Translations under genes and position numbers: made by a program
Notes under the pieces: model-generated
What the model saw: only the letters and a program-made list of their open reading frames with translations
Databases searched by the model: none
Told to the model about the DNA's origin: nothing
Origin: Halorutilales archaeon Cl-col2-1
GTDB taxonomy: Archaea > Halobacteriota > Halobacteria > Halobacteriales > Afararchaeaceae
DNA length: 64,000 nt
Direction: 5' to 3'
Assembly (NCBI GenBank): GCA_041891055.1
Contig: CP169074.1
Location: 224,001 to 288,000 of the forward strand
Part shown: positions 15,761 through 38,151 of the stretch, piece after piece
How the letters are laid out: each line of letters starts with the position of its first letter
Numbering within the stretch: the stretch's first letter is position 1

Positions 15761-16702
15761 ATGGAAGTCAGACAGATAGCAGAGGAACTACACGGCAGAT
15801 TTTCGGAAGACGTGTCGGTTGACGAGATAGAGGAGAGTCTCGACAGTCTCATAAACGAGTACCAAGTCCCCGAGGACGAGGCGCGCCGGAGCGTCATAAG
15901 CAGATACTCCGACGGGGACGCCGATGCTAACGCTAACTCCGAAGCCGGCTCGCCCGACGAGGTCACCAAGGTGTCGGAGATAGATTCGCCCGAGGAATGG
16001 ATCACGGTTGAGGTCGAGGTCGTCGATCTCTGGGAACCCACGAGCGACGCTATAGGACAGGTGGGTCTCGTGGGCGACGAAACTGATACCGTAAAGTTCA
16101 CAGCGTGGGCGAAGAGCGACCTTCCCGAGTTAGACGAGGGCGGGACATACAGGCTCGAAAACGTTGTGACAGACGAGTACGAGGGACGTATGAGCATTAA
16201 GCTCAACTCGTCGACCGAGATAGAAGAGATCGACGACGAGATTGAGGTCGGCACAGCCGAGACTGAGATAGAAGGCGCGCTCGTCGACATACAGTCAGGG
16301 AGCGGTCTCATAAAGAGATGTCCCGTTGAGGGATGTACGCGCGTCCTCCAGAACGGACGGTGTGCAGAACACGGCGACGTCGACGGCGAGTTCGATCTAC
16401 GTGTCAAGGGAGTCATAGACGACGGAAAAGAGGTTCACGACGTCATATTCGACCGCGAGATGACCGAGGATCTGACCGGGATCACGATGGAAGAGGCGAA
16501 ACAGAAGGCGATGGACAAACTCGACACGAGCGTAGTGACCGACGATATACACGAGAAACTCGTCGGACGGTACTTCAGTGTCTCGGGAACCGAGATAGGA
16601 AGATACCTTCTCGCTAACGACGCCGAGAAGCTCTCAGCAGATACTGATACTGACGCACTCCTTATAAGAGCGCGGTCGGTAGGAGGTGGTTCGGATGAGT
16701 GA
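15761..16702 (+). CDS. rpa3: Replication protein A (OB folds + Zn finger), Rpa3-type
   Basis: QVGLVGDET OB fold; GSGLIKRCPVEGC.R...GRC.EHG. Confidence 0.85.
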   Translation: MEVRQIAEELHGRFSEDVSVDEIEESLDSLINEYQVPEDEARRSVISRYSDGDADANANSEAGSPDEVTKVSEIDSPEEWITVEVEVVDLWEPTSDAIGQVGLVGDETDTVKFTAWAKSDLPELDEGGTYRLENVVTDEYEGRMSIKLNSSTEIEEIDDEIEVGTAETEIEGALVDIQSGSGLIKRCPVEGCTRVLQNGRCAEHGDVDGEFDLRVKGVIDDGKEVHDVIFDREMTEDLTGITMEEAKQKAMDKLDTSVVTDDIHEKLVGRYFSVSGTEIGRYLLANDAEKLSADTDTDALLIRARSVGGGSDE

Positions 16703-17315
16703 GTCCGATATAAGACGTGAGGTCGCGCGGCGTGTCTTCGCACGTGAGTTCGGCGACTCTTCCCACACGTTCAAGGAAAGCGACGACGACCGCGCACCGA
16801 CCTACCTCCTTCTTCCGACAGGCGAGAAGGCGAACCGTGTCTTCGTGGTCGGGACTCTCACAGAGAAGGAGGACATAGGTGAGGACTCGGAGTACTGGAG
16901 GGCAAGAGTCGTCGATCCTACGGGAACCTTCCTCGTCTACGCTGGACAGTACCAGCCCGAGGCAGTCGATGCTCTCCGTGACATAGAGCCTCCCGAGTAC
17001 GTCGCCGTCGTGGGCAAGCCCAACACCTACGAGCCCGAAGACGAAGACGGCGAGACAGACGTTGGCGAATCTGAAGATTCGCCTGCAGACGAGAACGAGA
17101 GTTCTCGGGACGTTATAACCTCGATACGCCCCGAGTCGATCAACATCGTCGACGCAGAGACGCGTGATAGATGGATAGGCGAGACCGCCGAGAGAACTCT
17201 TGACAGGATTGAGGGAGAGGCCGACGAGAAGGAGATGTCTCACGAGATCTACGGTGACGGAATAAGCCCGAGATACAAAGACGTAGTCGTGGACGCACTC
17301 GAAAGCCTCGAATAG
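16695..17315 (+). CDS. RPA-associated protein
   Basis: REVARRVFA.E, RAP...LLPTGE.ANRV, YAGQYQPEA; overlaps the rpa stop. Confidence 0.85.
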   Translation: MSESDIRREVARRVFAREFGDSSHTFKESDDDRAPTYLLLPTGEKANRVFVVGTLTEKEDIGEDSEYWRARVVDPTGTFLVYAGQYQPEAVDALRDIEPPEYVAVVGKPNTYEPEDEDGETDVGESEDSPADENESSRDVITSIRPESINIVDAETRDRWIGETAERTLDRIEGEADEKEMSHEIYGDGISPRYKDVVVDALESLE

Positions 17316-22228: not shown

Positions 22229-22333
22229 AGACGTTCGGAAATCTCTGATTTCCGAGCCAACAAGATCGGAGATCTTGTGACGGTCATCAATCTCCGATTG
22301 ATAAAGCCTGTAAATCAAAGATGTACAGACGTT
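22229..22333 (+). mobile_element. Two tandem twin-hairpin units (98 bp) flanked by AGACGTT direct repeat
   Basis: Hairpins GGAAATC/GATTTCC, ACAAGATC/GATCTTGT, ATCAATC/GATTGAT, TGTAAATC/GATGTACA. Confidence 0.75.
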
Positions 22334-22887
22334 TCTTCCATCTCTCAGGATCTCTGTATCCCCTTCTCCACGTATCGGGTCTTCTGACGTGGGATCAGAT
22401 GAGGCTTCTGTCGTGGATAGGGATCACCGTCGCCGCCGTCCTCGAATACCTGCGTCTCGGTAGGGGAGTCGTCTTCTTCGAGTCTCTCTACCGCGACTAC
22501 GAGAAGGAAAGTATAGCGGGATACGTCTTAGCGGGGGTCGGACTCTTTCTCTCGGTCAACCTCTTTCCCCCGAGTATCGGAACCGCCTCAATGTTTATGC
22601 TCACCGTCGCAGACCCCATCGCGGGAGCCGTCGGAACGGGTGAGCTAAGAAGGGTCAAGAAGCCGCGCGTCCTCGTCACGGCATTCTGTGTGAGTCTCGT
22701 CGTGAGCCTGCGGTTCGTCTCTCCCTTAGTCGGAGCCGCAGGCGCTCTCGGGGCAGCTCTCGGCGACGGCGTCAAGCTACGTCTGAGAGGATACGTAATA
22801 GACGACAACCTCACGATACCCGTCTACTCGGGGTCTGTGATGACCGTAGTCTCTCAGTACTTCGGCTCCGCTCCCGTGATCTCGTAG
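22321..22887 (+). CDS. Dolichol/phytol-kinase-like membrane protein
   Basis: RRFFHLSG, LYRDYE..SIAGY, ADPIAG, DDNLTIP. Confidence 0.8.
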   Translation: MYRRFFHLSGSLYPLLHVSGLLTWDQMRLLSWIGITVAAVLEYLRLGRGVVFFESLYRDYEKESIAGYVLAGVGLFLSVNLFPPSIGTASMFMLTVADPIAGAVGTGELRRVKKPRVLVTAFCVSLVVSLRFVSPLVGAAGALGAALGDGVKLRLRGYVIDDNLTIPVYSGSVMTVVSQYFGSAPVIS

Positions 22888-24227
22888 ACTTCGTCGAGTA
22901 CCCCGTCACGTCTCTCCTGCCAGTCACCGAGTGCCTCGGGCGATTCGGGGTAGTCGTCGTAGAGGTCACGTATCTCGGACGCCTTCTTGCTGACCTTGTA
23001 GACTTCGAGGAGGGTTCTCCAGTGACCGAATGTGTCGACCGCAGTCTTGAGCTTGAGACCGAGAGACATCGACGTCGTACCTTTCTCGCCTAATGCGTCC
23101 ATAAGCTGCTGTCCCGGCATCGCAGAAACGACGTCGGTTAGCTCGTCGACCTCGTGGGCGGTTCCGAATATGTTGTAGAGATCCATCGCGGCGAAGTTCT
23201 TTCCGAAGTCGGTCATCACCCTCCGGTTGTACTCCCAGAGCGCGTCCTCCGAGACGTCTCCTTCGTCTATAGCCTCGAGACCTATCTCGGCTCCCCAGTG
23301 CCCCGACTTCGCCGCGCCGGGTATTCCGCCGCCCGTAGTGGGATTTACGTGTCCTGCGGCGTCACCTACGGCGATGAAGCCGTCTGCGACTGCTGAGTCG
23401 TAGGGACGTCTCGTCGGGAGAGCCGCGCCTAACTTGTCCTTGACAGTGGGGTTGACGAACTCGTCTTTGTCCTGAATGTCGTCTCTCAGAGCCTCGACGA
23501 GTTCCATCGGAGGCTTGTCCATCTGGAAGCCGAGTCCGACGTTGATCTCTGTCGGCGTCCTCGGGAAGTACCAGAGGTAGCCGAGCTCCTCAGTCGGCTT
23601 GAATACTATGCTGTTGTCCCAGTCGACGGGCTCGTCGACCTCGATCACCTCGCGGTAGGCGGAACAGAACTGACTGTACGAGACGTCGGTGTCGAATGTC
23701 GAGTTTGAGGCGTCGAGGTCGTCCTGTAAGACGGAGAGCGCGCCGGCGGCGTCTATAGTTAGATCGGCGTGGTACTCTATCTCCTCGCCGTCGTGTTTGG
23801 CTCTGACGCCCTCGACCTTTCCGTCGTCGTCCTGTATCACTCCGTTGACGACGGTCTCGTACTCCATCTCCGCACCCGCCTTCTCCGCCTCGTCCAATAG
23901 TACTCGTCCGTACTTCCAACGGTCGACTATCACACCCGGCTCGGGGAAAGGTATGTCGAGAACGTCCCCCTTCTCGGGATTCTTGAACCTAGCGTACTCT
24001 ATCCTCCGGTTAGTGAAAGACTCCTCTCTGAGACGTTCGACGTCTATCACGTCGGGGAAGGTGCTCACGCCCTTTATGGCGTCGCCGCATGCTATATGTC
24101 CCGCCTCCTCCTCCGTCTTCCTCTCGATCACGACGACGTCGGCTCCCTTGGATGCCGCTGTCGCGGCGGCGAAACAGCCCGCGGTTCCACCTCCGACTAC
24201 GGCTATGTCGTACTCTCGGACTCGCAT
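22854..24227 (-). CDS. Geranylgeranyl reductase family protein
   Basis: GGGTAG FAD motif, ACGDA, GYLWYFP, GDAAGHVNPTTGGGI. Confidence 0.9.
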   Translation of the reverse strand: MRVREYDIAVVGGGTAGCFAAATAASKGADVVVIERKTEEEAGHIACGDAIKGVSTFPDVIDVERLREESFTNRRIEYARFKNPEKGDVLDIPFPEPGVIVDRWKYGRVLLDEAEKAGAEMEYETVVNGVIQDDDGKVEGVRAKHDGEEIEYHADLTIDAAGALSVLQDDLDASNSTFDTDVSYSQFCSAYREVIEVDEPVDWDNSIVFKPTEELGYLWYFPRTPTEINVGLGFQMDKPPMELVEALRDDIQDKDEFVNPTVKDKLGAALPTRRPYDSAVADGFIAVGDAAGHVNPTTGGGIPGAAKSGHWGAEIGLEAIDEGDVSEDALWEYNRRVMTDFGKNFAAMDLYNIFGTAHEVDELTDVVSAMPGQQLMDALGEKGTTSMSLGLKLKTAVDTFGHWRTLLEVYKVSKKASEIRDLYDDYPESPEALGDWQERRDGVLDEVYEITGAEPKY

Positions 24228-24323
24228 CTAAGGACTCTATCCGTTCGTGCTTATTGTCTGTTGCGTCTTGGGTCGCTTACTCATTAGGAAGTCCTATTAG
24301 GCTTCGTGACCTACGTCGAAGGG

Positions 24324-25262
24324 ATGAGCGAAACCGAAGGATGTGTTCTACCTGATGTTCAGGCGACAGAGCCCGAGGTCGAGATAGGACTCCAGAGGGT
24401 GGGGGTAACCGACGTCGAGAAGCTCGTCAAGATCGACAGGGGCGACGAACGTCCCATAGTCCTGATGGGTGAGTTCGATGTCTACGTCGACCTACCCGCC
24501 GAGAGGAAGGGTGCCGACATGAGCCGTAACATGGAGGTCATAGACGAGGTACTCGAAGACCTCACACGTGACCCCGTCTACAAGGTCGAGGATCTGTGTG
24601 GCGAGATCGCCGAGCGTCTCCTAGGACGTCACTCGTACACGACACGTACCGAAGTCGAGATGGAGGCGGAGTACATGTACCGTGACACTACACCCGCGAG
24701 CGAGAGGGACACACAGGGCGTCGCGACCATACACGCCTCGGCGGAGGCGACTGACGAGGGTGTCAGGAAGTCGATAGGTGCCGAGGTCACAGGGACGACT
24801 GCGTGTCCGTGTTCTCAGGGGATGATGGAGTCCGAAGCCGCCGAGAAGCTACGTCAACTCGGACTCTCGCCCGAAGAGATAGACGAGTACTTTGACGAGA
24901 TTCCACAGGCGGCACACAACCAGAGGTCGCGCGCCCTCCTCTCGATAGAGACGACCGACGGCACCCACGTCGGACTCGAAAAGATCATAGAGGTCGCGCG
25001 TGACTCGATGAGCTCACGTATCTACAACCTGGCTAAGAGACCCGACGAACACCACATGACAAAGGAGATGCACGAGAACGCGAGGTTCGTTGAGGACGTA
25101 GTGAGGGTGATGGCGAGAAAGGTCGTCGAGAGCTTCGACCTCCCCGACGACGCCGTCGTGAGCATAAGACAGGAGAACGAGGAGAGCATACATCAGCACA
25201 ACGCCTACGCCGAGACACAGGTCGAGTTCGGCGAACTCAGGAGTAGAATTGCGGAAGAATAA
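24324..25262 (+). CDS. mptA: GTP cyclohydrolase MptA (FolE2 family)
   Basis: LPDVQA, KGADMSR, TACPCSQ, HNQR, FVED, ESIHQHNA. Confidence 0.92.
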   Translation: MSETEGCVLPDVQATEPEVEIGLQRVGVTDVEKLVKIDRGDERPIVLMGEFDVYVDLPAERKGADMSRNMEVIDEVLEDLTRDPVYKVEDLCGEIAERLLGRHSYTTRTEVEMEAEYMYRDTTPASERDTQGVATIHASAEATDEGVRKSIGAEVTGTTACPCSQGMMESEAAEKLRQLGLSPEEIDEYFDEIPQAAHNQRSRALLSIETTDGTHVGLEKIIEVARDSMSSRIYNLAKRPDEHHMTKEMHENARFVEDVVRVMARKVVESFDLPDDAVVSIRQENEESIHQHNAYAETQVEFGELRSRIAEE

Positions 25263-25289
25263 ATAGAGTCGTAGACCACGTTTCCACCG

Positions 25290-27122
25290 ATGGCTTCTGT
25301 CACGCTTCTACTCATACCGTCTCTGATAATAGCCCTCGGTGCTCTGTCAGTCATAGTCGCAGACAAGTACGAGGTTCCGAGTGTTGTCTTTCTCCTCGGC
25401 TTCGGAATACTCTTCGGACCCCAGGTCTTGGGTATAATCAATCCCGAGATATTCGGAGACGCATTACCGTCGATAGTCTCGCTTTCGGTCGCCATAATCG
25501 TCTTCGAGGGTGCGTTCCATCTCAGCATACCGAGGGTACGTAAAGCACCCAAGTCGGCTATCAAGGTCATCGTCTTCGGAGCCGTCGTAACCCTTGTAGG
25601 CATGGGTGTCATAAACCATTATCTCCTGGGTCTCCAGTGGAGTCTCTCGTTTCTCATAGCCTCGCTTCTCGTCGCCACGGGACCCACTGTGATCACACCG
25701 ATAATGTCACAGGTCAGGGTACGTGAGGGTGTCAGAGGTGTTCTCGAAACCGAGGGTATAGTCAACGACGTGGTTGCGGCTATACTCGCAGTCGTCATAT
25801 TCGAGGTCGCACTTCTCGGGGAGGCAAGTGGTGGGGTTCTCGACGTCTTCATACAGCGTATAGGGGTCGGCGTTATCTTCGGAATACTTGCGACTGCGGT
25901 CGACTGGTACATACTCAGGAAGACCGACATATCGCCCCAGCAGTCACGTCTCCTAGTCCTTGCGACGGCTCTCCTCTTCTTCTCGTTCTCGGAGTGGGTC
26001 AACACGGAGGCGGGGATAGCCACAGTCGCTATATTCGGTGTTCTCCTCGGTAACGTCGACATACCTTACAAGGAGGAAATCTCGGAGTTCAAGGGAGACC
26101 TGACCGTGATCGTCCTGAGTATTATATTCATACTTCTCGCGTCTCTGCTTGAGTTCGACGACCTATTCAGCCTCGGATGGCGCGGTGTAGTAGCCGTGGC
26201 TCTCTTAGTTCTCGTGATACGTCCTATCGGAGTCCATCTCTCGACGCTCGGATCGAATCTCACACTACGTGAGCGTCACTTCATATCTTTCGTGGGTCCA
26301 CGTGGTATAGTGCCGGCTTCGGTCGCCACACTCTTCTCGATACGTCTCGCCGAGGAAGGTGTTCCGAACGCCGGGAAGGTCGTAAGCGTCGTCTTCCTCG
26401 TGATACTCGTCACAGTCGTTATACAGGCGGGAGGCGCGCCGTTTATTGCGGATAAGCTCGACATTATACCCATGAACATACTCGTCGTCGGAGGCGGACG
26501 TGTAGGACGTGACATAGCCGAGAGCCTCGACGAGAGGGGCGAGAACGTCGTAGTGATAGAGAAGGAAGATGAGAGGGTTGAGAAGATACGTTCGATGGGT
26601 ATCAACGTCGTCACGGGAAGCGGAACTAATAGAGAGGTTCTGGAGGAGGCGGGAGCTGACCGCACGAAGGTATTCGTCGCAGCCACAGCCGACGATGACC
26701 AGAACATACTTGCGTGCCAGACGGCGAGGGCGAACTTCGGCATAACTAACCTAATCTCACGTGTCAACGATACTGAGAACCTCGACGCTTTCGAGGATCT
26801 CGATGTCAGAACAGTCTCTCCGTCGCGCGCTACGTCGTTCATGATGGACAACATGATAGAACGCCCGGGCCTATTCTCTTGGCTCACAGAGCTCGGTGAG
26901 GGAGGCGATGTCGTCGAGGTCGATGTAGTCTCGGACGAGGTCGTGGGGAAGACAGTCGACGAGTTAGATCTCCCCGAGGGCTGTATAATCGCACTCATAC
27001 AGAGAGAGGACGACCAGTTCACTCCGAGTCCCGATGTCGAGATACTCGAAGGTGACCACGTCACTCTACTCGGACGTACCGAAGCGGTTGAGGACGCCGT
27101 CAGGATGCTGAGACATGGCTGA
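25290..27122 (+). CDS. Cation:proton antiporter with TrkA-N/TrkA-C domains
   Basis: TGPTVI, EGIVND, GPRGIV; C-terminal GGGRVG Rossmann fold. Confidence 0.9.
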   Translation: MASVTLLLIPSLIIALGALSVIVADKYEVPSVVFLLGFGILFGPQVLGIINPEIFGDALPSIVSLSVAIIVFEGAFHLSIPRVRKAPKSAIKVIVFGAVVTLVGMGVINHYLLGLQWSLSFLIASLLVATGPTVITPIMSQVRVREGVRGVLETEGIVNDVVAAILAVVIFEVALLGEASGGVLDVFIQRIGVGVIFGILATAVDWYILRKTDISPQQSRLLVLATALLFFSFSEWVNTEAGIATVAIFGVLLGNVDIPYKEEISEFKGDLTVIVLSIIFILLASLLEFDDLFSLGWRGVVAVALLVLVIRPIGVHLSTLGSNLTLRERHFISFVGPRGIVPASVATLFSIRLAEEGVPNAGKVVSVVFLVILVTVVIQAGGAPFIADKLDIIPMNILVVGGGRVGRDIAESLDERGENVVVIEKEDERVEKIRSMGINVVTGSGTNREVLEEAGADRTKVFVAATADDDQNILACQTARANFGITNLISRVNDTENLDAFEDLDVRTVSPSRATSFMMDNMIERPGLFSWLTELGEGGDVVEVDVVSDEVVGKTVDELDLPEGCIIALIQREDDQFTPSPDVEILEGDHVTLLGRTEAVEDAVRMLRHG

Positions 27123-27185
27123 AGGCCAAGCGATGTTGTAGCCTCTCAGCAATACTATTATATGTCCTGACGTGGATGGTCTTTC

Positions 27186-28544
27186 ATGGAGGACACAGAG
27201 CCTTTCGTCGTAATCGGGGGCGACGCCGCAGGGATGAGTGCGGCATCGAAGTCGAAACGTGAGGAGCCCGAGAGGGAAGTAATAGTCTTCGAGAAGGGCG
27301 ACTGGGTCTCTTATGCTGCGTGTGGGATGCCCTACTACATAAAGGGGGAGGTCGAGTCGCTCGACGATCTAGTCTCCATAACCGCCGAGGAGTTCAGAGA
27401 GGAGCGTGACATAGACCTGCGCACGAGACACGAGGTCATCGAGATACGTCCTGAAGAGAACCAGGTAGTCGTAGAGGACAGAGACGCGGGAGATACCTTC
27501 GAACAGACCTACGGCGACTTGCTTATAGCTACGGGGGCGACTGCTGTGGAGCCGCCGATAGACGGCATTGGGCTCAACGGCGTCTTCACGTTACACTCAA
27601 TGGACGACGCCGACGAGATAGACGACTATGTGTCGAGGGACGGCGTCGAGAGTTTCGGAATCGTGGGCGGCGGATACGTCGGCATGGAGATGTCGGAGGC
27701 TCTCAGAAGTAGGGGACTCGACGTAGACGTCTTTGAGGCTCTTCCTCACGTCCTCCAGCCCTTCGGTGAGGACGCCGCTGAGGTAGTCGAGGATCACGTG
27801 CGCGAGAAAGGTGTCGACCTTCATCTCGAAACCTCCGTTGAAAGAATGACCGGCGACGGAAGTGTCACGGGCATAGAAGCCGACAGCGAGGAGTACGAAC
27901 TCGACGGAGTCCTCGTCGGCGTCGGTGTGAAACCGAACGTTGGAATCGCGGATGAAGCGGGAATCGAAATCGGGGAGACGGGCGCGATAGCCACTGATGA
28001 GTACGGACGCACCAACTATGAGAACGTATACGCCGCTGGAGACTGTGCCGAGGCGACTAACTCAGTGACACGAGACACCGACCACGTCCCACTCGCACTC
28101 ACCGCGAACAGACACGGGCGCGCAGTCGGACAGACAGTCGCGGGATCACCCACGGAGGTCGGAGAGATAGTCGGGACGGCAGTCGTCAAGGTCTTCGACC
28201 TCGAAGTCGCGAGGACGGGTATAGTCGACCACGAGACGGCAGAGGACGCGGGCTTCGACCCGGTTTCGAGAACCATAACCGCTGAGTCGAGGGCAGGATA
28301 CTACCCCGGAGCGGAGCCTATACGTGTGCGTCTGACCGCCGACTCGGAGACTGAGCGTCTCTTAGGTGCAACTATGGTCAGCGAGGACACAGCCGCGAAG
28401 AGGATAGATACAGTAGCGACGGCACTCCACGCGGGTATGACTGTCTCGGAGGTTGAGAGCCTCGACCTGTCGTACGCGCCGCCTTTCAGCCCTGTCTGGG
28501 ACGCGACTCTGACGGCGGCGAAGGTACTCAGCTCGACTCTATAA
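27186..28544 (+). CDS. CoA-disulfide reductase / NADH oxidase family
   Basis: GGDAAGMSAA, SYAACGMPY, GGGYVGME, YAAGDC, LDLSYAPPFS. Confidence 0.9.
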   Translation: MEDTEPFVVIGGDAAGMSAASKSKREEPEREVIVFEKGDWVSYAACGMPYYIKGEVESLDDLVSITAEEFREERDIDLRTRHEVIEIRPEENQVVVEDRDAGDTFEQTYGDLLIATGATAVEPPIDGIGLNGVFTLHSMDDADEIDDYVSRDGVESFGIVGGGYVGMEMSEALRSRGLDVDVFEALPHVLQPFGEDAAEVVEDHVREKGVDLHLETSVERMTGDGSVTGIEADSEEYELDGVLVGVGVKPNVGIADEAGIEIGETGAIATDEYGRTNYENVYAAGDCAEATNSVTRDTDHVPLALTANRHGRAVGQTVAGSPTEVGEIVGTAVVKVFDLEVARTGIVDHETAEDAGFDPVSRTITAESRAGYYPGAEPIRVRLTADSETERLLGATMVSEDTAAKRIDTVATALHAGMTVSEVESLDLSYAPPFSPVWDATLTAAKVLSSTL

Positions 28545-28706
28545 ACGTCTGGTACCTCTCCTACTTCTCGTGTAGAGGCTCCAGACGAAGTAGATGATAA
28601 AGAGGAGTACGAGTACGACGAAGAATAGGTAGGCGATAGTCATCGCTGATCCGACCTCGTCGACCACGGCGCGGAGTACGTCGAGGGAGCCGTCTGCGCG
28701 TCCCAT
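28539..28706 (-). CDS. Small single-TM membrane protein (55 aa, absent from the ORF track)
   Basis: MGRADGSLDVLRAVVDEVGSAMTIAYLFFVVLVLLFIIYFVWSLYTRSRRGTRRL; hydrophobic helix followed by a basic tail. Confidence 0.55.
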   Translation of the reverse strand: MGRADGSLDVLRAVVDEVGSAMTIAYLFFVVLVLLFIIYFVWSLYTRSRRGTRRL

Positions 28707-28758
28707 CTACGTCAACTCCATACCGAGACCTTATAGAGGTTTGGCATCTACTGGGGCT

Positions 28759-28995
28759 ATGGAGCCGCGCGAGAAGATACGTAAGATAGACGACTACCTC
28801 GACCGCGACAGGCTCGTATGTCTCGAAGGACGTAACACGAGAAAGGGTGACAAACTGATAGTCGAGGGTATCGACCGTGACGCGGCGGAGATAGTCGCCC
28901 ACGAGGAGGAGTCAGGGTGGAAGAAGAGGGTGAGTCTCAGGAGAATCGAGGGGATCGGAAGCGAAGATGCGTGGTACGAGGTCAAGTTCTACTGA
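28759..28995 (+). CDS. Hypothetical protein (78 aa)
   Basis: ATG 28759 after CTTATA; host-like codon usage. Confidence 0.6.
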   Translation: MEPREKIRKIDDYLDRDRLVCLEGRNTRKGDKLIVEGIDRDAAEIVAHEEESGWKKRVSLRRIEGIGSEDAWYEVKFY

Positions 28996-29033
28996 ATACT
29001 GAGTACTGAGTAATATCTGTCCGGCGGTTAACG

Positions 29034-29669
29034 TTAACGGGGAGCCACGTCTTCTTCTTCCATCCTGATGAAGGCGTCCTGTTCGTTTATCCTCCACGAG
29101 TCGACGGCTGAGATAGTCTTAGTCTTGTCGGGAACGTACTTGAACTCGGTCTTCTTAGTGTCAGGGCTCACCGAGATAAGACCGACTTCGAGGTTCTCGA
29201 ATATGTCCGACTCTTCGATGACTGAGTTGAACTCCGACTCGGGTATGGCGGCGAACCTGTACTCGGCGAACTTGTGGCACCTGTATGCGCGTCTGAAGGT
29301 CTCCTTCCAGTCGTCGGAGTAGACCTGTACAGCAGCCGAGGTCACGTGTCTTTCGAGGGATGACTTGACCTGGACGTAGCCGTTCTTCTCGAAGATAAAG
29401 CCCTTGTCTTCGAGCCATTCGAGACCCTCGACAGCCTTGTCCTTGTCGTCGAAGTCGGCGATGAAGTTACGTCTCTTGGCTCCACCCTTCTTGAGAAGCT
29501 CGAGGAATACCTCAAGACGGTGCATGCTGAGAATAGCAGTGTCTATGCCGAGCTTGACCCTCCTCTTGTCCCACGCGTCCTCGTCTATAGTGATGAAGAC
29601 TAAGTCGGCTGTCGAAGTCCCGAATGGAAATTCCTCTATGGTCTGAGATATGTCGAGTGTAGAGACCAT
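29034..29669 (-). CDS. Degenerate PD-(D/E)xK-like protein with internal HTH-like segment
   Basis: EFPFGTSTADLV, DW....RRAYR...FAEY, VGLISV; the expected E-x-K reads Q-V-Y. Confidence 0.55.
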   Translation of the reverse strand: MVSTLDISQTIEEFPFGTSTADLVFITIDEDAWDKRRVKLGIDTAILSMHRLEVFLELLKKGGAKRRNFIADFDDKDKAVEGLEWLEDKGFIFEKNGYVQVKSSLERHVTSAAVQVYSDDWKETFRRAYRCHKFAEYRFAAIPESEFNSVIEESDIFENLEVGLISVSPDTKKTEFKYVPDKTKTISAVDSWRINEQDAFIRMEEEDVAPR

Positions 29670-29759
29670 CTTCTCCTCGACAGCCTTCTTGATCTCGGAC
29701 TTACTCTCGAAACATACCGACTACTTTAGTTCGGGATGTATTGGTCTTTTCGCTACTCG

Positions 29760-31982
29760 TTACTGGACTCCTCTCTGAACCTTGTCGTCGTCGGTCTGTA
29801 TGCTTGATACTCCCTCAGCCATCTCGTCGTACTTCCTTCTCGCCTCCTCGTCGAGCGACGGCTGTACCTCCTCGAGTGCCTCCTCGAAGTCGTCCATCGT
29901 GATCTTGACGTTACCGACCGACTTGTCTATCTCCTCGGGCGAGATTCCGCTTCCAATGAAGCTCCTCATCGCGCTCATGCTCGCCTCTTTCGCGACCGCC
30001 TCTATGTCACTACCCGTGTATCCCTCTGTCCTCGAAGCGATCTCCTCGAAGTCGACGTCGTCTGAGAGGGGCATGCCCTCAGTGTGTATCTCAAATATCT
30101 CCGCCCTAGCGTCGGTGTCGGGGACGGGAACGTGTATCTTCTTGTCGAGCCTGCCGGGACGCAGGAGCGCCTGGTCGATACGGTCGGGTCGGTTCGTCGC
30201 CGCGATAACGACTACGTTCTTGAGCTCCTCGACGCCGTCGAGCTCCGTCAGAAGCTGTGAGACGACGCGCTCCGTAACCTGGGTGTCACGCGAGCCTCCT
30301 CTCTCAGGGGCGAGCGAGTCGATCTCGTCGAAGAAGATTACCGTCGGCGCGTTCTGTCTCGCCTTCTTGAAGACCTCACGTATTCCCTTCTCCGACTCGC
30401 CGACGTACTTGTTGAGAAGCTCAGGTCCCTTGACAGAGATGAAGTTCGAGTCGCTCGCGTTCGCGACCGCCTTCGCGAGGAGTGTCTTTCCCGTACCAGG
30501 CGGTCCGTACATCAGTATGCCCTTCGGACTCTCGGCGTGTAGCTCCTCGAAGACCTCGGGGTAGTTGAGAGGCCATTCGACAGCCTCTATGAGATCCTGC
30601 TTTGCGTCTTCGAGACCTCCGACGTTGTCGTACGTGACGTCGGGAACCTCTGTGAAGACCTCCCTCATCGCGCTCGGCTCTACGTCTCTGAGAGCGTCCT
30701 CGAAGTCGTCCTCCTCGATCTCAAGCTCCTCTAAGACCTCAGGGGGTATCTCCTCGGCTTCGATGTCTATCTCCGACCTCACCTTTCTGAGAGCCGACAT
30801 AGCCGCTTCCTTCGAGAGTGCATGTATGTCCGCCCCCACGAAGCCGTGTGTCCTGTCGGCGTACTCGTCTAAGTCGACTTCCTCGGCGAGAGGCATTCCC
30901 CGGGTATGTATCTGGAGTATCTCTTTCCTTCCGTCTCTGTCGGGGACTCCGACCTCTATCTCCCTGTCGAAACGTCCTCCCCTACGGAGCGCGGGATCGA
31001 CTGCGTCGACACGGTTGGTCGCGCCGATTACTATGACGTCACCCCGGCTTTCGAGACCGTCCATCAGAGACAGAAGCTGTGCGACGACACGTCTCTCGAC
31101 CTCTCCCGAGTCCTCCCTCTTCGGTGCGAGAGAGTCGAGTTCGTCGAAGAAGATTACTGTCGGCGCGTTCTCCTCAGCCTCCTCGAATATCTCTCTGAGC
31201 TGCTCCTCCGACTCACCGTAGTACTTCGACATTATCTCAGGTCCCGATACGGTCTCGAAATGTGCATCGACCTCGTTGGCGACCGCCTTCGCTATGAGTG
31301 TCTTACCCGTTCCGGGAGGTCCGTGTAGGAGAACGCCCTTCGGGGGCTCTATACCGAGCTCCTCGAAGAGCTCGGGGTGGCGGAGGGGAAGCTCTATCAT
31401 CTCACGTACCTGCTCTAGCTCGTCCTCAAGACCGCCTATGTCCTCGTAGGTCGTGTCAGTAACGGAGCCCCTCTGTCCCTCGACCTCCTCTTCAGAGACG
31501 GGCTCCTCCGAGATCTCGATCTGTGTCTTGTCGCCGACTACGACAGCACCCGAGGGCTGTGTGTCGGTGATAGCGAACTTGATACGGTTGCCTATCATCT
31601 CGACGCGTATGTTGTCGCCCTTCGTGACGGGTCTGCCGTAGAGAACCCTCTTCATGTAGCCGGTTCCGCCACGTATCTTGATCTTCTGTGAGACTGGCGC
31701 GATACTCACCGAGTCGGCTTTCTCTGCCTCTGTCTTCTTGACGTCGACGTGATCGTCTATTCCGACTCCAGCATTCTTACGTACGCTTCCGTCGATACGT
31801 ACTATGCCTTTTCCGGTGTCCTCGGAGTATCCGGGCCAAGCCTTCGCGACTGTTGTCCTCTCGCCCTCTATCTCGACTATGTCACCTGAGACTATCCCGA
31901 GCTCCTTCATCGCTCTCTGGTCGACGTAAGCCTTTCCTTGACCTGCGTCGCTCGAACGTACTTCTCCTACAGTTAGCTTCAT
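29760..31982 (-). CDS. cdc48: CDC48/VAT AAA ATPase
   Basis: Two AAA modules ([20 protein letters not shown]) after an N domain. Confidence 0.96.
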
Positions 31983-32089
31983 CGTTACGAGAAGTAAGCG
32001 TCCATAGTATATAAATTTTTGGTGGAAACTGTCGGCGGTGTTCAGATAAGGATTGAATGAAGAAGAGGCGTGGCGTTTTTTGAGTGTCT

Positions 32090-32775
32090 ATGCCAGAAAA
32101 CGCACGCCTCAGCAAGGATATAGACGTTCGTTAATCGTAGATTAACGAGCCTGTAAATCTCCGATTTACAGACACTATCGAGTTAGGGTTTGTGGAACGA
32201 GAAGCGACACCCCAATTCGCTATGAAGCTCGGTATTCAGATGCACTTGGCTGGGTTATCGCTCTCGAATACCGTGTCTGTCCTCGAAAGTTTGGGTGTCG
32301 AGCGCGTACGTTCGACCGTCCACAACTGGGTTCACAAGGCAGACTTACAGCCCGACGACAATAACAATCCGAATCAAGTTGCCGTTGACGAAACCATGAT
32401 TCGGTTCAACGGAAGGTGGCACTGGCTGTACATCGCCGTCGATCCAGACACTAACAATATCCTCCACACGAAGCTTCAACCAACAAGAAACCACTATACA
32501 GCGAAGGAATTCATGCTGGAACTAATTGAGAAACACGACTTGGACGAGAGCTTGTTTCTCGTTGATGGACTCCCGTCTCTTCATGATGCCTGTCGGTACC
32601 ACTCACTCCGATTTCGGGTCACTAAACAGGGAAATCATCGGAACTCCGTAGAACGTGTCTTCAGAAATTAAAACGCCGTACAAAAGCTTTCTCTAACTCG
32701 TTTAGCAACGCTCACCATCAGACAACCGACGACTGGCTCAAATCGTTCGCCTTCGCTTGGAATCATCTTATCTGA
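32090..32775 (+). pseudogene. IS6-family transposase pseudogene
   Basis: MPENARL..., RSTVHNWVHKADLQP, VAVDET, FLVDG, RNSVERVF; stop inside the 48-bp insert and a frameshift near 32667; C-terminal WLKSFAFAWNHLI. Confidence 0.9.
32126..32173 (+). mobile_element. Single 48-bp twin-hairpin unit inserted in the transposase
   Basis: GTTC-GTTAATC-GTA-GATTAAC-GAGCC-TGTAAATC-TCC-GATTTACA-GAC; removing it restores the frame. Confidence 0.85.
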
Positions 32776-32888
32776 ACACTACCTTAGACTCAGTCGTTTC
32801 GGCATATTCTTCTCTAGCCTCCGACAGTGTTAACTCAGACGAGTCGGATACAAGACCCGGAGGGTCTACGACGAAAAGAGAAAGACTC

Positions 32889-34010
32889 GTGGTCGTGCTC
32901 ACCGCAGCGGTCGGCTGTCTCTCGCTCGTCACGGGTGTGGTCAACCTCGCCTCAGCATTACGTTTCGTTCCTGTGGCACGGTACGTCCCCGAGTTCGTGA
33001 GAAGAGGGGTGAGTCTCACGGGATCTTTCACGGGATTCGCTCTCCTCGTGAGCGCGTGGGGTCTCGGAAGACGTCTCCGGGTTGCATGGTATATGACTCT
33101 AGTTCTCCTGCCGATAGTTGCTCTCCAAGGTGTCGTCCAGTCGAGCCTTCTTTCGGTTCCTCTGATACTTCTTTCGCTCGCCGCGGTACCGTCAGTCTTC
33201 TTGAGTAGATCGAGTTTCGACAGAAGACACCCGCTCTCCGACACCCAGACAGCTGCCGTCGTTATACTCTCCGTCGTAGTACTCTACGGAACCGTGGGAT
33301 CGTACGTTCTACGTGACGGGTACAGCCAGATAGAGACTCCCCTCGACGCATTCTACTACACCGTTGTAACCATCAGTACCGTAGGATACGGCGACGGAGT
33401 TCCGACTACACAGCTCACACGAACATTTACGTTGTCTCTGATCGTAGTTGGGACAGCGGGCTTCGCGGTCGGCGTGGGTGCGGTACTCACGCCGGCAATA
33501 GAAAAGCGTCTCACGACTGCACTCGGAAGGATGACCACATCAGAACTCGAACTCCTTGAGAACCACGTGATAGTTCTGGGATACGGAGACCTTACCGAGC
33601 CGATACTACGTGAGTTAGACGGAAGGGTTGAGTTCGTAGTTGTTACCGAGGGCTCTGCCGGCGAACTCGGTGAGAGAGGATACAACGTCCTCAAGGCGGA
33701 TCCGAGTAGCGAAGAGGCTATCACGACGGCGAGGATAGACACAGCGTCTGCTGTCGTGGCAGCCACCAACAACGACGCGGAGGACGCCCTCTCAGTCCTA
33801 ACGGCTCGCCAGCTTAACCCTGACGTGAGACTCGTCTCCGCAGCCACCGAACAGGAGAACGTCGAGAAGCTTAGGCGAGCCGGCGCAGACACCGTTATAA
33901 GCCCGGCGAGTATCGTAGGACATCTTCTCGTTGAGTCGGCTCTGAGTGGAAGTGACACCGAGGAGATCGCCGAGAGCATCCTCAAAGACAAGACGCGCTC
34001 CGAGAACTGA
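32889..34010 (+). CDS. Potassium channel protein with TrkA-N (RCK) domain; start uncertain
   Basis: TISTVGYGD selectivity filter; HVIVLGYG; KLRRAGAD.VISP. Confidence 0.9.
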   Translation: MVVLTAAVGCLSLVTGVVNLASALRFVPVARYVPEFVRRGVSLTGSFTGFALLVSAWGLGRRLRVAWYMTLVLLPIVALQGVVQSSLLSVPLILLSLAAVPSVFLSRSSFDRRHPLSDTQTAAVVILSVVVLYGTVGSYVLRDGYSQIETPLDAFYYTVVTISTVGYGDGVPTTQLTRTFTLSLIVVGTAGFAVGVGAVLTPAIEKRLTTALGRMTTSELELLENHVIVLGYGDLTEPILRELDGRVEFVVVTEGSAGELGERGYNVLKADPSSEEAITTARIDTASAVVAATNNDAEDALSVLTARQLNPDVRLVSAATEQENVEKLRRAGADTVISPASIVGHLLVESALSGSDTEEIAESILKDKTRSEN

Positions 34011-34052
34011 GACAGGCCTAAACTTTTTATAATGGGGATTCGTGAGAGAGTC

Positions 34053-34808
34053 ATGGTCTTTGACCTACACAGGCGGAAGTTCGTGATGGGATCAGTGGCG
34101 GTCGTAGTCGGGAGCATAGCGGGATGTACCGGCGGGGGCAATGGGGGCGAAGAAGACGGTGGGGATGAAGCTGGAGATGGCGATGGCACTGATAATGGAA
34201 ACGGCGAAACCGATGGTAACGGAGACGACGGAACCGCCGACGAGGAGGGGGATGAAGGGGAAGGCGAGGAGGTAATCTTCAGGGACGCCGTACAGATGGG
34301 TGAGTCATTTGCCTTTGAGTCGGAGTTCGAGACAGAAGAAGCTCAGGGAACCGCGACAGGCCGGTACTACGAGGACGACATCTACTACCACGTTGAGACA
34401 CAGGAACAGACGGTCGAGGTCTACGAGATCGACGACGAGACCTACGTCGTCTTTGTCGACGAGGATATGTGTGTCAAGAACCCGGGTGAGGAGATGAAGC
34501 CGGATTCGGGCGGCGAGGGAAAGGCAAATCCCGACGAATACGAGGCAGACGTCAACGACTACCCCGAGATAACACCCAAGGGAACGACGACAATAGACGG
34601 AGAGACTGTCTACATCTTCGAGATAACCGACGAGGACACAGAGATGACTGTGACTTACTACGTGAGCGTCGAGACAGGTTATATACGTAGAGTTGAGACA
34701 CAAGACGGCGTGGTGGATCTACATTCGTGGGACGACGTCGATCCCGTACAGCCTCCTGACATGGACTGCAGGGACATCTCAGATATGCCCTCACCAGGGG
34801 ACTTCTGA
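34053..34808 (+). CDS. Tat lipoprotein, hypothetical
   Basis: RRKF, IAGC lipobox, acidic G/D linker. Confidence 0.8.
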   Translation: MVFDLHRRKFVMGSVAVVVGSIAGCTGGGNGGEEDGGDEAGDGDGTDNGNGETDGNGDDGTADEEGDEGEGEEVIFRDAVQMGESFAFESEFETEEAQGTATGRYYEDDIYYHVETQEQTVEVYEIDDETYVVFVDEDMCVKNPGEEMKPDSGGEGKANPDEYEADVNDYPEITPKGTTTIDGETVYIFEITDEDTEMTVTYYVSVETGYIRRVETQDGVVDLHSWDDVDPVQPPDMDCRDISDMPSPGDF

Positions 34809-34833
34809 TTCTCGAAGAGGTCGAATTTTATTT

Positions 34834-35712
34834 TTATCCGAGGTACGACGACTGGCAGTCTGGACAGATATCGCCTTCCCTTAGAGACTCCGACGACTCG
34901 AAGGTAGAACCACACGAGGAGCACGACAGCGACGTTTCGGAGACCTCGTCGGACGAACCACCGAAGGATGTCTCGTACGGTGTCTCAGTCTCATCCGTAG
35001 GGGTCTTTACGTCCTTCCCTGCCTGTGTTTCTGTCGTTGAGCCATCTGCATCACCGGAGATGTAGTCGGAAATTGAGCCGTTATCCTCCGAACCGGAGCC
35101 AATTCCCGGTATGTCCTGTTCCACGGAGTCGGACTCCCCATCCGTATCCGATTCGGACGTTGAGGAGCCGGACGAGGACGAGCCGGTCAGTATCTCGACT
35201 CCTTCGTCCTGATCCGCATCAGTCGACTCCTCGGCTGTCTCCTCATCTGTCTGGGTCTGGGAGTCGAGGTCAGAGCTATCCGACTCGAAGACATCTCCTC
35301 CGTCGCTCGTTACTGTATTGGATTCGGTGTGGTCAGTGGCGGTCTCAGAAACTGTTCTGACTCCAGAGGTTGACGAATCCGAGACCGAGGATTCGGTGCT
35401 GTCCTGAGACGGAGACTGTGTCGGTGTCGGAGATCCGGCTGTCTTCTCCTTCTGCTTCTCAGCCGTCTGTTCCCGATCCGGGCTTCGAGGGATTCCCCGG
35501 GAACTACCCCCGGTCTCGTCATCCGTGTCAGCCTCCGTCTCTCCACTCTCGACGACCTCACGTCTCTTCTTCTTGACCTCTCTCTCGCCACATCTCCTGC
35601 ACGTACGGAAGGTCGTAAACAGTATCTCCGTACAGCCGTCGTGCTCCTCCTGTGAGTCCTCCATCTGGTAGGGCTCCCAGTCGTGTCCTGTGAGTCGGCA
35701 GAGAGGTTTCAC
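34834..35712 (-). CDS. Hypothetical protein with terminal Zn-binding motifs and a long S/T/D/E-rich linker
   Basis: C.LTGH.W...CRRCG at the N-terminus; CSSCG...SLREGDICPDC at the C-terminus; GTG start assumed. Confidence 0.75.
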   Translation of the reverse strand: MKPLCRLTGHDWEPYQMEDSQEEHDGCTEILFTTFRTCRRCGEREVKKKRREVVESGETEADTDDETGGSSRGIPRSPDREQTAEKQKEKTAGSPTPTQSPSQDSTESSVSDSSTSGVRTVSETATDHTESNTVTSDGGDVFESDSSDLDSQTQTDEETAEESTDADQDEGVEILTGSSSSGSSTSESDTDGESDSVEQDIPGIGSGSEDNGSISDYISGDADGSTTETQAGKDVKTPTDETETPYETSFGGSSDEVSETSLSCSSCGSTFESSESLREGDICPDCQSSYLG

Positions 35713-35766
35713 TCTTGTTAGAGTCTCCGTGCCACCGAGACATAAAACCTCGTCAGACGGACGTGT

Positions 35767-35959
35767 GACGCATTCGGAAATCTCTGATTTCCGAGCCTTC
35801 AAAGCTCTGCTTTGAGACGTTCGTGAATCTCTGATTCACGTGCCATCGAAGCTTCCGCTTCGAGACGTTCGCGAATCTTCGATTCGCGTGCCCACAAGAT
35901 CGGAGATCTTGTGACGTTCGAAAATCTCCGATTTCTGAGCCATCAAATCTCCGATTTGA
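35767..35959 (+). repeat. Tandem array of four twin-hairpin units (49/48/49/47 bp)
   Basis: Units start at GAC 35767, 35816, 35864, 35913; eight hairpins. Confidence 0.9.
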
Positions 35960-36007
35960 GAAGCCCGACTCGGAACTCCTAAGGAAGACACGTACGGATA
36001 CGTCTGT

Positions 36008-37129: not shown

Positions 37130-38151
37130 AAGGAGTTCGTCTTACTCTTTCCGGTGTAACTTCTACGTAACGCTACCGAGAGACCGCCGAGTCCGACGAC
37201 GGTTATCACGGCTCCGGCGAGCCCTCCAATGATCGGAACCATGCCGAGTATCGACGAGACGAGTAGACCGATGACGAGAGACAGCCATCTGTTCCTGAAG
37301 CCTTCGAGAGAGAGTATCCATGTCCCGAGAGAGAAACTACCGTAGACTGACGACATCCAGAGTGCGACCGCGAATAGTAATCCGAGGACGAGAGCTATTG
37401 GAATTCCTATTACTGTTATACTCACCAAGATTAATCCTATCGGAACACCGACTGCGACGAGGAGTCCCACGCCTCCAGACTCGACGGGTTCGGAGACCAC
37501 CTCGTCGGCTACGGCGTCTGAGAGCCCAGGGAAAACGTATATAAGTATCAGACCTACGACGAGGTTGACGAGGAAGCCGTAGACAGAGAAGACCCACGAC
37601 GGTAGCAAGGAGTCGCTCGACCCCGGCTTAGTCTCTATCTTCTCGGTCTTACCGCCTATCTGTGCTCCCGAGCCACGTGTGTAGTCCTCAGCTGTGTAAC
37701 GCAGGTCGCCTCCTATGACGGCGTTCTCACCGAGACTGAGACTACTCGTCCTGAGTGTCGAAGTTCCGTTTATATGACCTTGAATAAGTGCACTCCCGGC
37801 ACTCGCGTTGAGGCTGCCCGAGATCCTCGCCGACTCGCCCACCAGGACGTTCCCCGTGTTAGCCTCGACGTCGCCCGTGACGTTTCCGTTGATAGCAACG
37901 GTTCCCGAGTACGCCTTGACGTCTCCGTTGACATTCCCGTCGATGGTAACGGTACCCGCGTAGGCTTTGAGGTTGCCGTCGACTGTTCCCCGAACCAGGA
38001 CGGTTCCGCCGTAGGCGTTTATGCTCTCAGTTGTTTCCCCGTCCTCTACTATTACGTTGCCTCCCGTACGTGTCTCCTGTGCCGAGACGGGAGACGTCGC
38101 AAAGACGAGCAGAAGAAAGCCCGCCAGAGCCAAGAGGTACTTCGTCTTCAT
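37126..38151 (-). CDS. Secreted polymer-forming (bactofilin-like) repeat protein with C-terminal TM segments
   Basis: Signal peptide; repeated G.V.I.G.V.GDV units; 4-5 TMs. Confidence 0.8.

Follow-up and report, generated by a model that had tools for sequence, protein, structure and literature searches.

Can a stretch of DNA that consists of hardly more than two hairpins behave as a mobile element, and if so, what moves it? The question is raised by a region of 64,000 nucleotides of Halorutilales archaeon Cl-col2-1 (C1:224001-288000, hereafter the window), an archaeon whose genome of 2.06 Mb has 55% G+C and lies in four contigs. A reading made from the sequence alone, without database searches, had picked out in the window seven twin-hairpin units of about 48 bp as a candidate undescribed mobile system. 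We conclude that the unit is a miniature, non-autonomous mobile element of ~48-49 nt with little beyond two hairpins, which are read on one strand. Units insert directly 3' of a C, most often that of a GAC, without target duplication, and their copies occupy intergenic DNA, the loops of end hairpins of insertion sequences (IS) of the IS200/IS605 type, a family of tnpB genes and, in frame, ordinary genes. We consider it probable that a Y1 transposase mobilises them in trans. The word "undescribed" had to be given up, as transposase-free palindromic relatives of IS605 (PATEs) and the SMR-A repeats were described in Haloquadratum in 2011 (excerpts of PMC3119063); the units are an unusually small form of an already known class of selfish DNA and no new system.

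Anatomy and covariation of the units

All seven units, beginning at 22230, 22279, 32123, 35767, 35816, 35864 and 35913 on the plus strand, were found in the sequence where they had been placed. A unit spans from GTTC to a closing GAC which, within arrays, is at the same time the start of the next unit. The first hairpin is built of GTTC, four variable bases, ATC, a three-base loop, GAT, the complementary four bases and GWGCC, and the second has a stem of 7-8 bp and a loop of 3-4 bases. Most window units follow the consensus that had been claimed for them, but those at 22279 (GGTC, AAAGCC) and 35767 (which starts GCATTC) depart from it. A pattern for the first hairpin with at most one mismatch matched six times in the window against 0.01 expected, the unit at 22279 standing outside these six because it needs more mismatches, and none of 100 dinucleotide-preserving shuffles gave six or more. 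Tandem Repeats Finder assigns 35779-35892 a period of 48 bp with a match rate of only 82%, and readings of the units as CRISPR or as a plain tandem repeat were rejected on anatomy.

The claim that the outer stems vary and nevertheless stay paired was borne out. In 23 seeds, which were chosen with the pattern that fixed the conserved letters, 96.6% of the alignment cells are paired, against 83.3% after shuffling, and changes on both sides of a pair number 57 against 17.7, a value of 57 being reached in 0 of 500 shuffles. In the 116 distinct matches of covariance model R1, which was built from 23 units drawn from this genome and from the congeneric G001, 96.2% of the cells are paired against 72.7% in shuffled alignments, and both-side changes, affecting 17 of 19 pairs, occupy 500 cells against 113.7; in this larger alignment the units are fitted to the model, and some of the matches lie on the opposite strand. 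Folded as single-stranded DNA, four units gave energies of -11.3 to -14.1 kcal/mol (z -3.6 to -6.1), with -13.7 kcal/mol and z -4.9 for the unit at 22230-22278. The G-T pair that was said to mark the strand is indeed conserved (U-G in 83 of 116 matches), but the plus strand is merely 0-0.5 kcal/mol stabler than the minus strand and, since the folds of the two strands differ by no more than this, the argument is energetically weak.

The units are diverse. The 74 strong units of the genome comprise 19 types of first hairpin and 45 types of second hairpin in 60 combinations. Neighbouring units of an array are 14-17 edits apart, so the array is no simple product of tandem duplication.

Filled and empty sites in close relatives

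We looked for alleles lacking a unit and found them in close relatives. In pairs of empty and filled alleles nothing is duplicated beyond the shared GA(C) or C. The sister species G001 is 87-97% identical to Cl-col2-1 over the compared genes; the four-unit array of the window is missing there and the flanks join after the same GAC. The array is likewise missing in 7.2-kb contigs of metagenome runs X2 and X3, both from one salt-lake study, in which position 35769 is joined to 35965 across a single intervening base, so that 195 bases are missing. In the hypersaline-lake metagenome run X1, which may come from the source sample, one contig skips exactly the second and third array units (97 bases) and thus represents a two-unit allele.

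Comparable differences were seen within genes. In a class I/II aminotransferase gene, and likewise in an M24 peptidase gene, the unit corresponds to an exact 48-bp gap in G001 (803 bp in G001 and 851 bp in Cl-col2-1 for the former, 853 and 901 bp for the latter), and the unit of a thioredoxin-like gene is also missing there, although nearby indels blur its length. The window also holds an eighth, degenerate unit at 17058-17111, which G001 shares, whereas the orthologous gene lacks it in G011 as well as in G027. In addition, two tnpB IS families include copies whose 3' regions are nearly identical apart from a 49-nt unit, which some have and others lack at one and the same position. The solo unit at 32123-32170 sits in a segment of ~780 bp (about 32043-32821) that has no counterpart in G001. 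This segment has inverted ends starting with CAGATAAG and carries a fragment of an IS6-type transposase (Pfam DDE_Tnp_IS240).

Arrays of unlike units can grow head to tail, because an insertion that ends in GAC, the triplet most often preceding units, recreates its target; this capacity had been predicted from the window and is supported here. Arrays shrink again through recombination between the conserved hairpin cores. At the first locus of the window G001 has a single chimeric unit, with the left arm of the unit at 22230 and the right arm of the unit at 22279. Since its arms derive from two units and its stem no longer pairs, the chimera has the signature of a 49-bp deletion between conserved cores.

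Family size, distribution and orientation

Scanning the genome with covariance model R1 gave at least 120 matches (E ≤ 0.01), of which at least 108 do not overlap, at 81 loci, and model and pattern matches together make at least 114 units. These counts are lower bounds, as 150 of ~1900 first-look candidates were scored and both the unit at 22279 and a copy in the methionyl-tRNA synthetase (MetRS) gene were missed. The 81 loci are 61 solo units, 14 pairs, five triplets and one quadruplet, the latter being the window array. The strict pattern alone finds 40 copies, with 19 per strand on contig C1 and one per strand on C2.

The family is nearly confined to one genus. Among the 31 genomes searched, matches with E ≤ 1e-4 numbered 86 in Cl-col2-1 and 90 in G001, and the nearest other genus had 16 in one of its two genomes and 5 in the other; four of the remaining genomes had 5, 3, 2 and 2, four had single matches and 19 had none. 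The strict pattern matched 31 times in G001 and its reversed version 0 times. An exact pattern specifying 18 bases, run over one genome per species (a collection that may omit records of the Cl-col2-1 genome itself), returned 15 stretches: five and two in two uncultured Halobacteriales metagenome-assembled genomes, and eight single matches in bacteria. A rough estimate of our own suggests that these eight, from unrelated bacteria, are about the number expected by chance. The two metagenome-assembled genomes, with ~70% G+C and so a base composition very unlike that of Cl-col2-1, carry the AT-rich first hairpin inside a longer repeated element with a common left flank of 30 nt.

All window units share one orientation, as had been observed, but this does not extend to the genome, where 56 of the non-overlapping model matches lie on the plus strand and 52 on the minus strand. 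Instead, orientation runs are regional (14 plus and one minus at 200-400 kb, four plus and 13 minus at 1.8-1.93 Mb) and flank a turning point of the GC skew. Cumulative GC skew turns at ~0.12 and ~1.5 Mb, and the chromosome has a single orc1/cdc6 gene, located at 1.52 Mb by the second of these points. The bias of the units is confined to the two regions beside the 0.12-Mb turning point.

Ends and landing sites

The sequence-only reading had every unit begin at WGAC. This is true of the window, but genome-wide GAC precedes GTTC in 32 of the 74 strong units, the others having nearly always NNC. At the 3' end, 53 of 68 units have GAC. Conservation preceding the units at their junctions is limited to one to three bases. 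The hairpins come to within 0-4 nt of the left unit end and 3 nt of the right end, and there are no terminal inverted repeats.

Many copies are associated with elements of the IS200/IS605 type, lying 170-410 bp 3' of the zinc-ribbon motif of tnpB on the same strand. In a tnpA-tnpB element of G001, units are found in the loops of both the left-end and the right-end hairpins. Six hairpins of the ATC type are enclosed by a single outer GC-rich hairpin at the left end of the only tnpA element of Cl-col2-1, and the same arrangement is seen in a tnpA-less copy on C2. IS copies free of units have GC-rich end hairpins with four-base loops (TTTA, TTCA or CACC).

Units inside genes

Eight open reading frames (ORFs) that do not belong to transposons contain a unit in frame. 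All eight units are in the sense orientation, their leading GAC is read as a codon (Asp), and their lengths are multiples of three. Six of the host genes were confirmed with Pfam matches that run through the insert (MetRS, Aminotran_1_2, Peptidase_M24, Thioredoxin, ThiN and Glyco_transf_4); each carries an in-frame insert of 16 residues, and three of these inserts are absent from G001. The seventh host is the window ORF 16683-17312 and the eighth a 448-residue open frame at C1:44168. We counted stop-free frames in 61 strong units and obtained 36, 37 and 22 for the three sense frames and 48, 29 and 26 for the antisense frames. Since other frames, including antisense ones, are equally stop-free, a filter against stop codons does not by itself explain the single orientation and frame.

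The MetRS insert could be followed over several relatives. The putative surface loop that receives it is filled in Cl-col2-1 and G001, holds a different member of the family in G027 (44.2 bits), and is empty in six genomes, G011 among them. In G008 and G006, other perfect GC-rich twin palindromes, with stems of 8-10 bp, occupy the same loop in frame. The G008 insert has nothing beyond short partial matches elsewhere in the G008 genome and, in the absence of further copies there, it demonstrates no family. For the glycosyltransferase site, no orthologue was found in G001, G011 or G027.

A subfamily of tnpB carries a unit in frame, in the antisense orientation, just 5' of the first RuvC motif. 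There are four such genes in Cl-col2-1 (C1:129988, 219446, 1844289 and 1930862), two in G001 and one in G011. Because it is conserved across two genera, this unit appears to be old and tolerated. It is itself flanked by an inverted repeat of 8-9 bp. At the G001 loci examined, the only further in-gene copies were those internal to tnpB, and the other ORFs that span units look spurious.

A candidate transposase

We searched for a Y1 gene and found one intact Y1_Tnp in the genome, outside the window (C1:979038-979397; 133.7 bits). It is a 138-residue open frame with HVH and YY motifs that adjoins tnpB; the genome has 33 TnpB matches. G001 and G011 each have four Y1 matches. In G001, a tnpB element of 1630 bp and a gene-less element of 475 bp occupy sites that are empty in Cl-col2-1, so machinery of the IS605 type has been active within the genus. 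The 475-bp element is PATE-like, bears hairpins and is 84% like C1:1208215-1208677; the corresponding empty site, at about 29758-29762 of the window, is the 3' end of a CDC48-type AAA ATPase gene (29760-31982, minus strand).

As we envisage it, units would move in single-stranded form by peel-and-paste chemistry. The Y1 (HUH) transposase responsible would act in trans and would be either the one intact IS200-type TnpA of the genome or a relative of it, and the compensatory changes in the stems would come from selection against hairpins to which this enzyme no longer binds. Single-strand transposition fits the absence of duplication, the short motif repeated at the unit end, the G-T-marked hairpins and the regional orientation runs, although these do not prove it.

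Several results weigh against mobilisation of this kind. Co-occurrence of Y1 genes with units is weak and was judged uninformative: of the eight genomes with at least two model matches (31 genomes searched), a Y1 gene was found in five and not in G027, G020 and G026, which are 91, 78 and 83% complete. The geometry of the ends is a further difficulty. In IS608, the arrangement of guide and cleavage site needs room outside the hairpins. The units have 0-4 nt and 3 nt there, against ~10 nt after the right-end hairpin of the resident IS, so their flanks are too short for an arrangement like that of IS608. Moreover, the end hairpins of the resident IS are unlike the unit palindromes, and hairpins of the ATC-N3-GAT type appear in IS ends merely as extra inserts; as the hairpins differ and unit-free IS copies exist, units look like lodgers in the IS ends and not like the ends themselves. 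Where the filled gene alleles carry GAC on both sides, G001 has GAT, GAA and GAT in its three empty ones. The signature of a recent burst is absent, since none of the window units recurs identically elsewhere and the nearest copies are 4-10 edits away. Complementary arms of at least 6 bp flank 17 of the 87 loci and, among 435 random intervals, 49; the enrichment being modest, we dropped the idea that units generally nest in flanking hairpins. Finally, we checked strand bias against replication; units of both orientations are mixed along most of the chromosome, and no polarity could be assigned.

Relation to described elements

The units share the behaviour of several known classes of selfish DNA but fail single defining features of each, which is the basis of our class placement. 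They are closest in description to the PATEs of Haloquadratum walsbyi and Natronomonas. The PATEs of Haloquadratum have no genes, carry palindromes near their ends and cause no duplication; they can be shortened by repeat-mediated deletion of their core, and forms reduced to the termini, of 52 bp (HqIRS46, ISHwa23), may still move (PMC3119063, excerpts). Units likewise have no genes, palindromes near both ends, no duplication and shortening by repeat-mediated deletion, and they agree with PATEs in lacking terminal inverted repeats, in their heterogeneous sequence, in a smallest size of about 50 bp and in living alongside many tnpB but few tnpA genes. PATEs insert next to a conserved oligonucleotide of 4-6 nt; at the junctions of the units one to three bases are conserved. 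On the other hand, PATE palindromes are related to the ends of resident IS605-type elements, whereas the unit palindromes are of the separate ATC-N3-GAT type; and units, unlike PATEs, have flanks of just 0-4 and 3 nt, form arrays of unlike members and are found in frame in housekeeping genes. These distinctions from the HqIRS families are drawn on description and not on sequence. Among the titles and abstracts searched, we found no account of 48-nt twin-hairpin units or of in-frame PATE insertions in haloarchaeal genes.

Two other classes can be set apart more easily. MITEs were rejected, the units having neither terminal inverted repeats that match a DDE transposon nor target duplication. Rickettsia palindromic elements are bacterial and longer than the units, and the likeness is one of outcome only, with no relationship implied. 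They too are palindromic selfish inserts that lie in frame in functional protein genes (cited in PMC3733652, excerpts).

Alternative explanations

The leading alternative, though unlikely in our judgement, is that the units are mobile by a route other than a canonical IS200/IS605 TnpA. They would then be hyperparasitic repeats comparable to SMR-A, spread by another enzyme or by polymerase template switching at extruded hairpins, and their preferred homes would be single-stranded loops, those of IS605-type ends among them. SMR-A repeats (HqIRS42, 43 and 55) insert into the near-terminal palindromes of IS605 and PATE elements without duplication, and their route of movement is called enigmatic (PMC3119063, excerpts). 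Like them, units are non-coding and enter IS605-type palindromes in several IS copies, being found inside the end-hairpin loops of at least three IS families that also have unit-free copies. The misfit of the unit geometry to IS608-type ends points in the same direction, as do the near-free assortment of hairpin types (19 x 45 types, 60 combinations in 74 units), which fits recombination or copy-choice, and the six bases, GACGTT, shared at the junction at 17058. However, SMR-A repeats measure ~110 bp, with copies more than 95% alike, and carry prominent terminal inverted repeats, whereas the units, at 48-49 nt, have two separate hairpins without such repeats, are diverse and mostly lie outside IS. 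As many as 70 of the 87 loci are outside flanking hairpins, and the sharp junctions at C together with the conserved GAC end resemble site-specific cleavage and not slippage. No other candidate enzyme turned up, in work that included no systematic search for one.

A bolder proposal, which we put forward as speculative and rather doubtful, would make the units a distinct minimal class of hairpin-only mobile DNA and not stumps of IS605 elements. Their enzyme would read the two hairpins with almost no guide flank and cut and paste at C; the units would be hyperparasites of IS200/IS605 end loops and of the guide-RNA regions of tnpB, and a recurrent source of short acidic surface-loop inserts in haloarchaeal housekeeping proteins, in one orientation and frame. 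The idea arises because all eight in-gene copies outside transposons are sense with GAC as Asp, and because the MetRS loop holds different twin hairpins in four genera.

We regard it as quite improbable that the units are structural repeats adopted by the host, in the manner of REPs and BIMEs, kept by selection as transcript stabilisers, terminators or protein-binding sites and only occasionally spread by a RAYT-like Y1 enzyme. The parallels are real: REPs and units alike are short palindromes beside a conserved tetranucleotide, with conserved G-T pairs marking one strand, in clusters and with occasional copies in genes, and a Y1 mover has been proposed for REPs as well. Compensatory change maintains the unit stems though no two copies are alike, and the first locus lies 28 bp after a stop codon. 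Bacterial REPs, tagged GTAG or CGTC, are known also within genes (PMC3733652, excerpts). The units, however, are tagged GTTC, which pairs with GAGC, and consist of two different hairpins in tandem, whereas REPs are bacterial and their pairs are usually inverted. The sole Y1 gene stands beside tnpB as in IS605, where a RAYT gene would stand alone between its repeats, although six ATC-type hairpins lie on one side of it. No single host role would fit copies in promoters, coding sequence, IS elements and tnpB alike, and both the presence/absence differences between close relatives and the near-restriction to one genus argue for selfish spread.

Least probable is the view that a single old burst, together with local tandem duplication, left the units as decaying relics that have been immobile in the recent history of the genus: the lack of identical solo copies and the three of six comparable in-gene sites that are common with G001 (MetRS, ThiN and the window ORF) would agree with it, but it is largely refuted by the three in-gene units and the whole window array that differ between the two genomes and by the coexistence of array-length alleles in one metagenome, and relics would neither keep 96% of cells paired nor have array neighbours as their least similar members.

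The units of the window and their surroundings

The degenerate unit at 17058-17111 (plus strand, 54 nt including the leading GAC; 38.5 bits with model R1) lies in frame and sense within ORF 16683-17312, whose frame stays open throughout. This ORF is conserved in G001, G011 and G027, and a Pfam search with it gave no match.

At the first locus, the unit at 22230-22278 (plus, 49 nt) starts 28 bp 3' of the stop codon of a class II aminoacyl-tRNA synthetase gene, identified by Pfam, and with 76.8 bits is the top model match of the genome. The degenerate second unit follows at 22279-22327 (plus, 49 nt). Directly 3' of it, at 22328-22345, the sequence restarts with GACGTTTC and half a palindrome, resembling a truncated third unit. 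A listed ORF at 22321-22887, which has no Pfam match, would begin inside the second unit. The solo unit at the second locus, 32123-32170 (plus), is 48 nt long and scores 47.7 bits.

The array comprises, all on the plus strand, the units at 35767-35815 (with the deviant start described above after GAC; 48.9 bits), 35816-35863 (48 nt; 53.9 bits), 35864-35912 (49 nt; 70.0 bits) and 35913-35961 (with a deviant end, GAA; 47.2 bits). It stops 48 bp 5' of the start codon of an isocitrate/isopropylmalate dehydrogenase gene (Pfam).

Two further features were noted nearby. A stretch of ~800 bp at about 34029-34830, containing ORF 34032-34808 without a Pfam match, has no counterpart at the syntenic place of G001. 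Downstream of the array, 37862-37977 holds a 51-bp tandem repeat (2.3 copies, 75% matches by Tandem Repeats Finder) that is apparently unrelated to the hairpin units.

Implications

At 48-49 nt, the units are among the smallest elements with demonstrable insertion polymorphism. Being nearly pure pairs of hairpins, they offer a clean substrate on which the minimal needs of a Y1/HUH transposase could be defined, or with which another mover could be revealed. That they settle in the end hairpins of IS605 elements, in the 3' regions of tnpB that yield guide RNA and in the tnpB frame ahead of the first RuvC motif is relevant to how TnpB elements accommodate such lodgers or are disabled by them. For annotation, arrays of this kind should be taken neither as CRISPR-like nor as regulatory by default. 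Within the genes of their hosts, the units show selfish DNA remodelling archaeal proteins.

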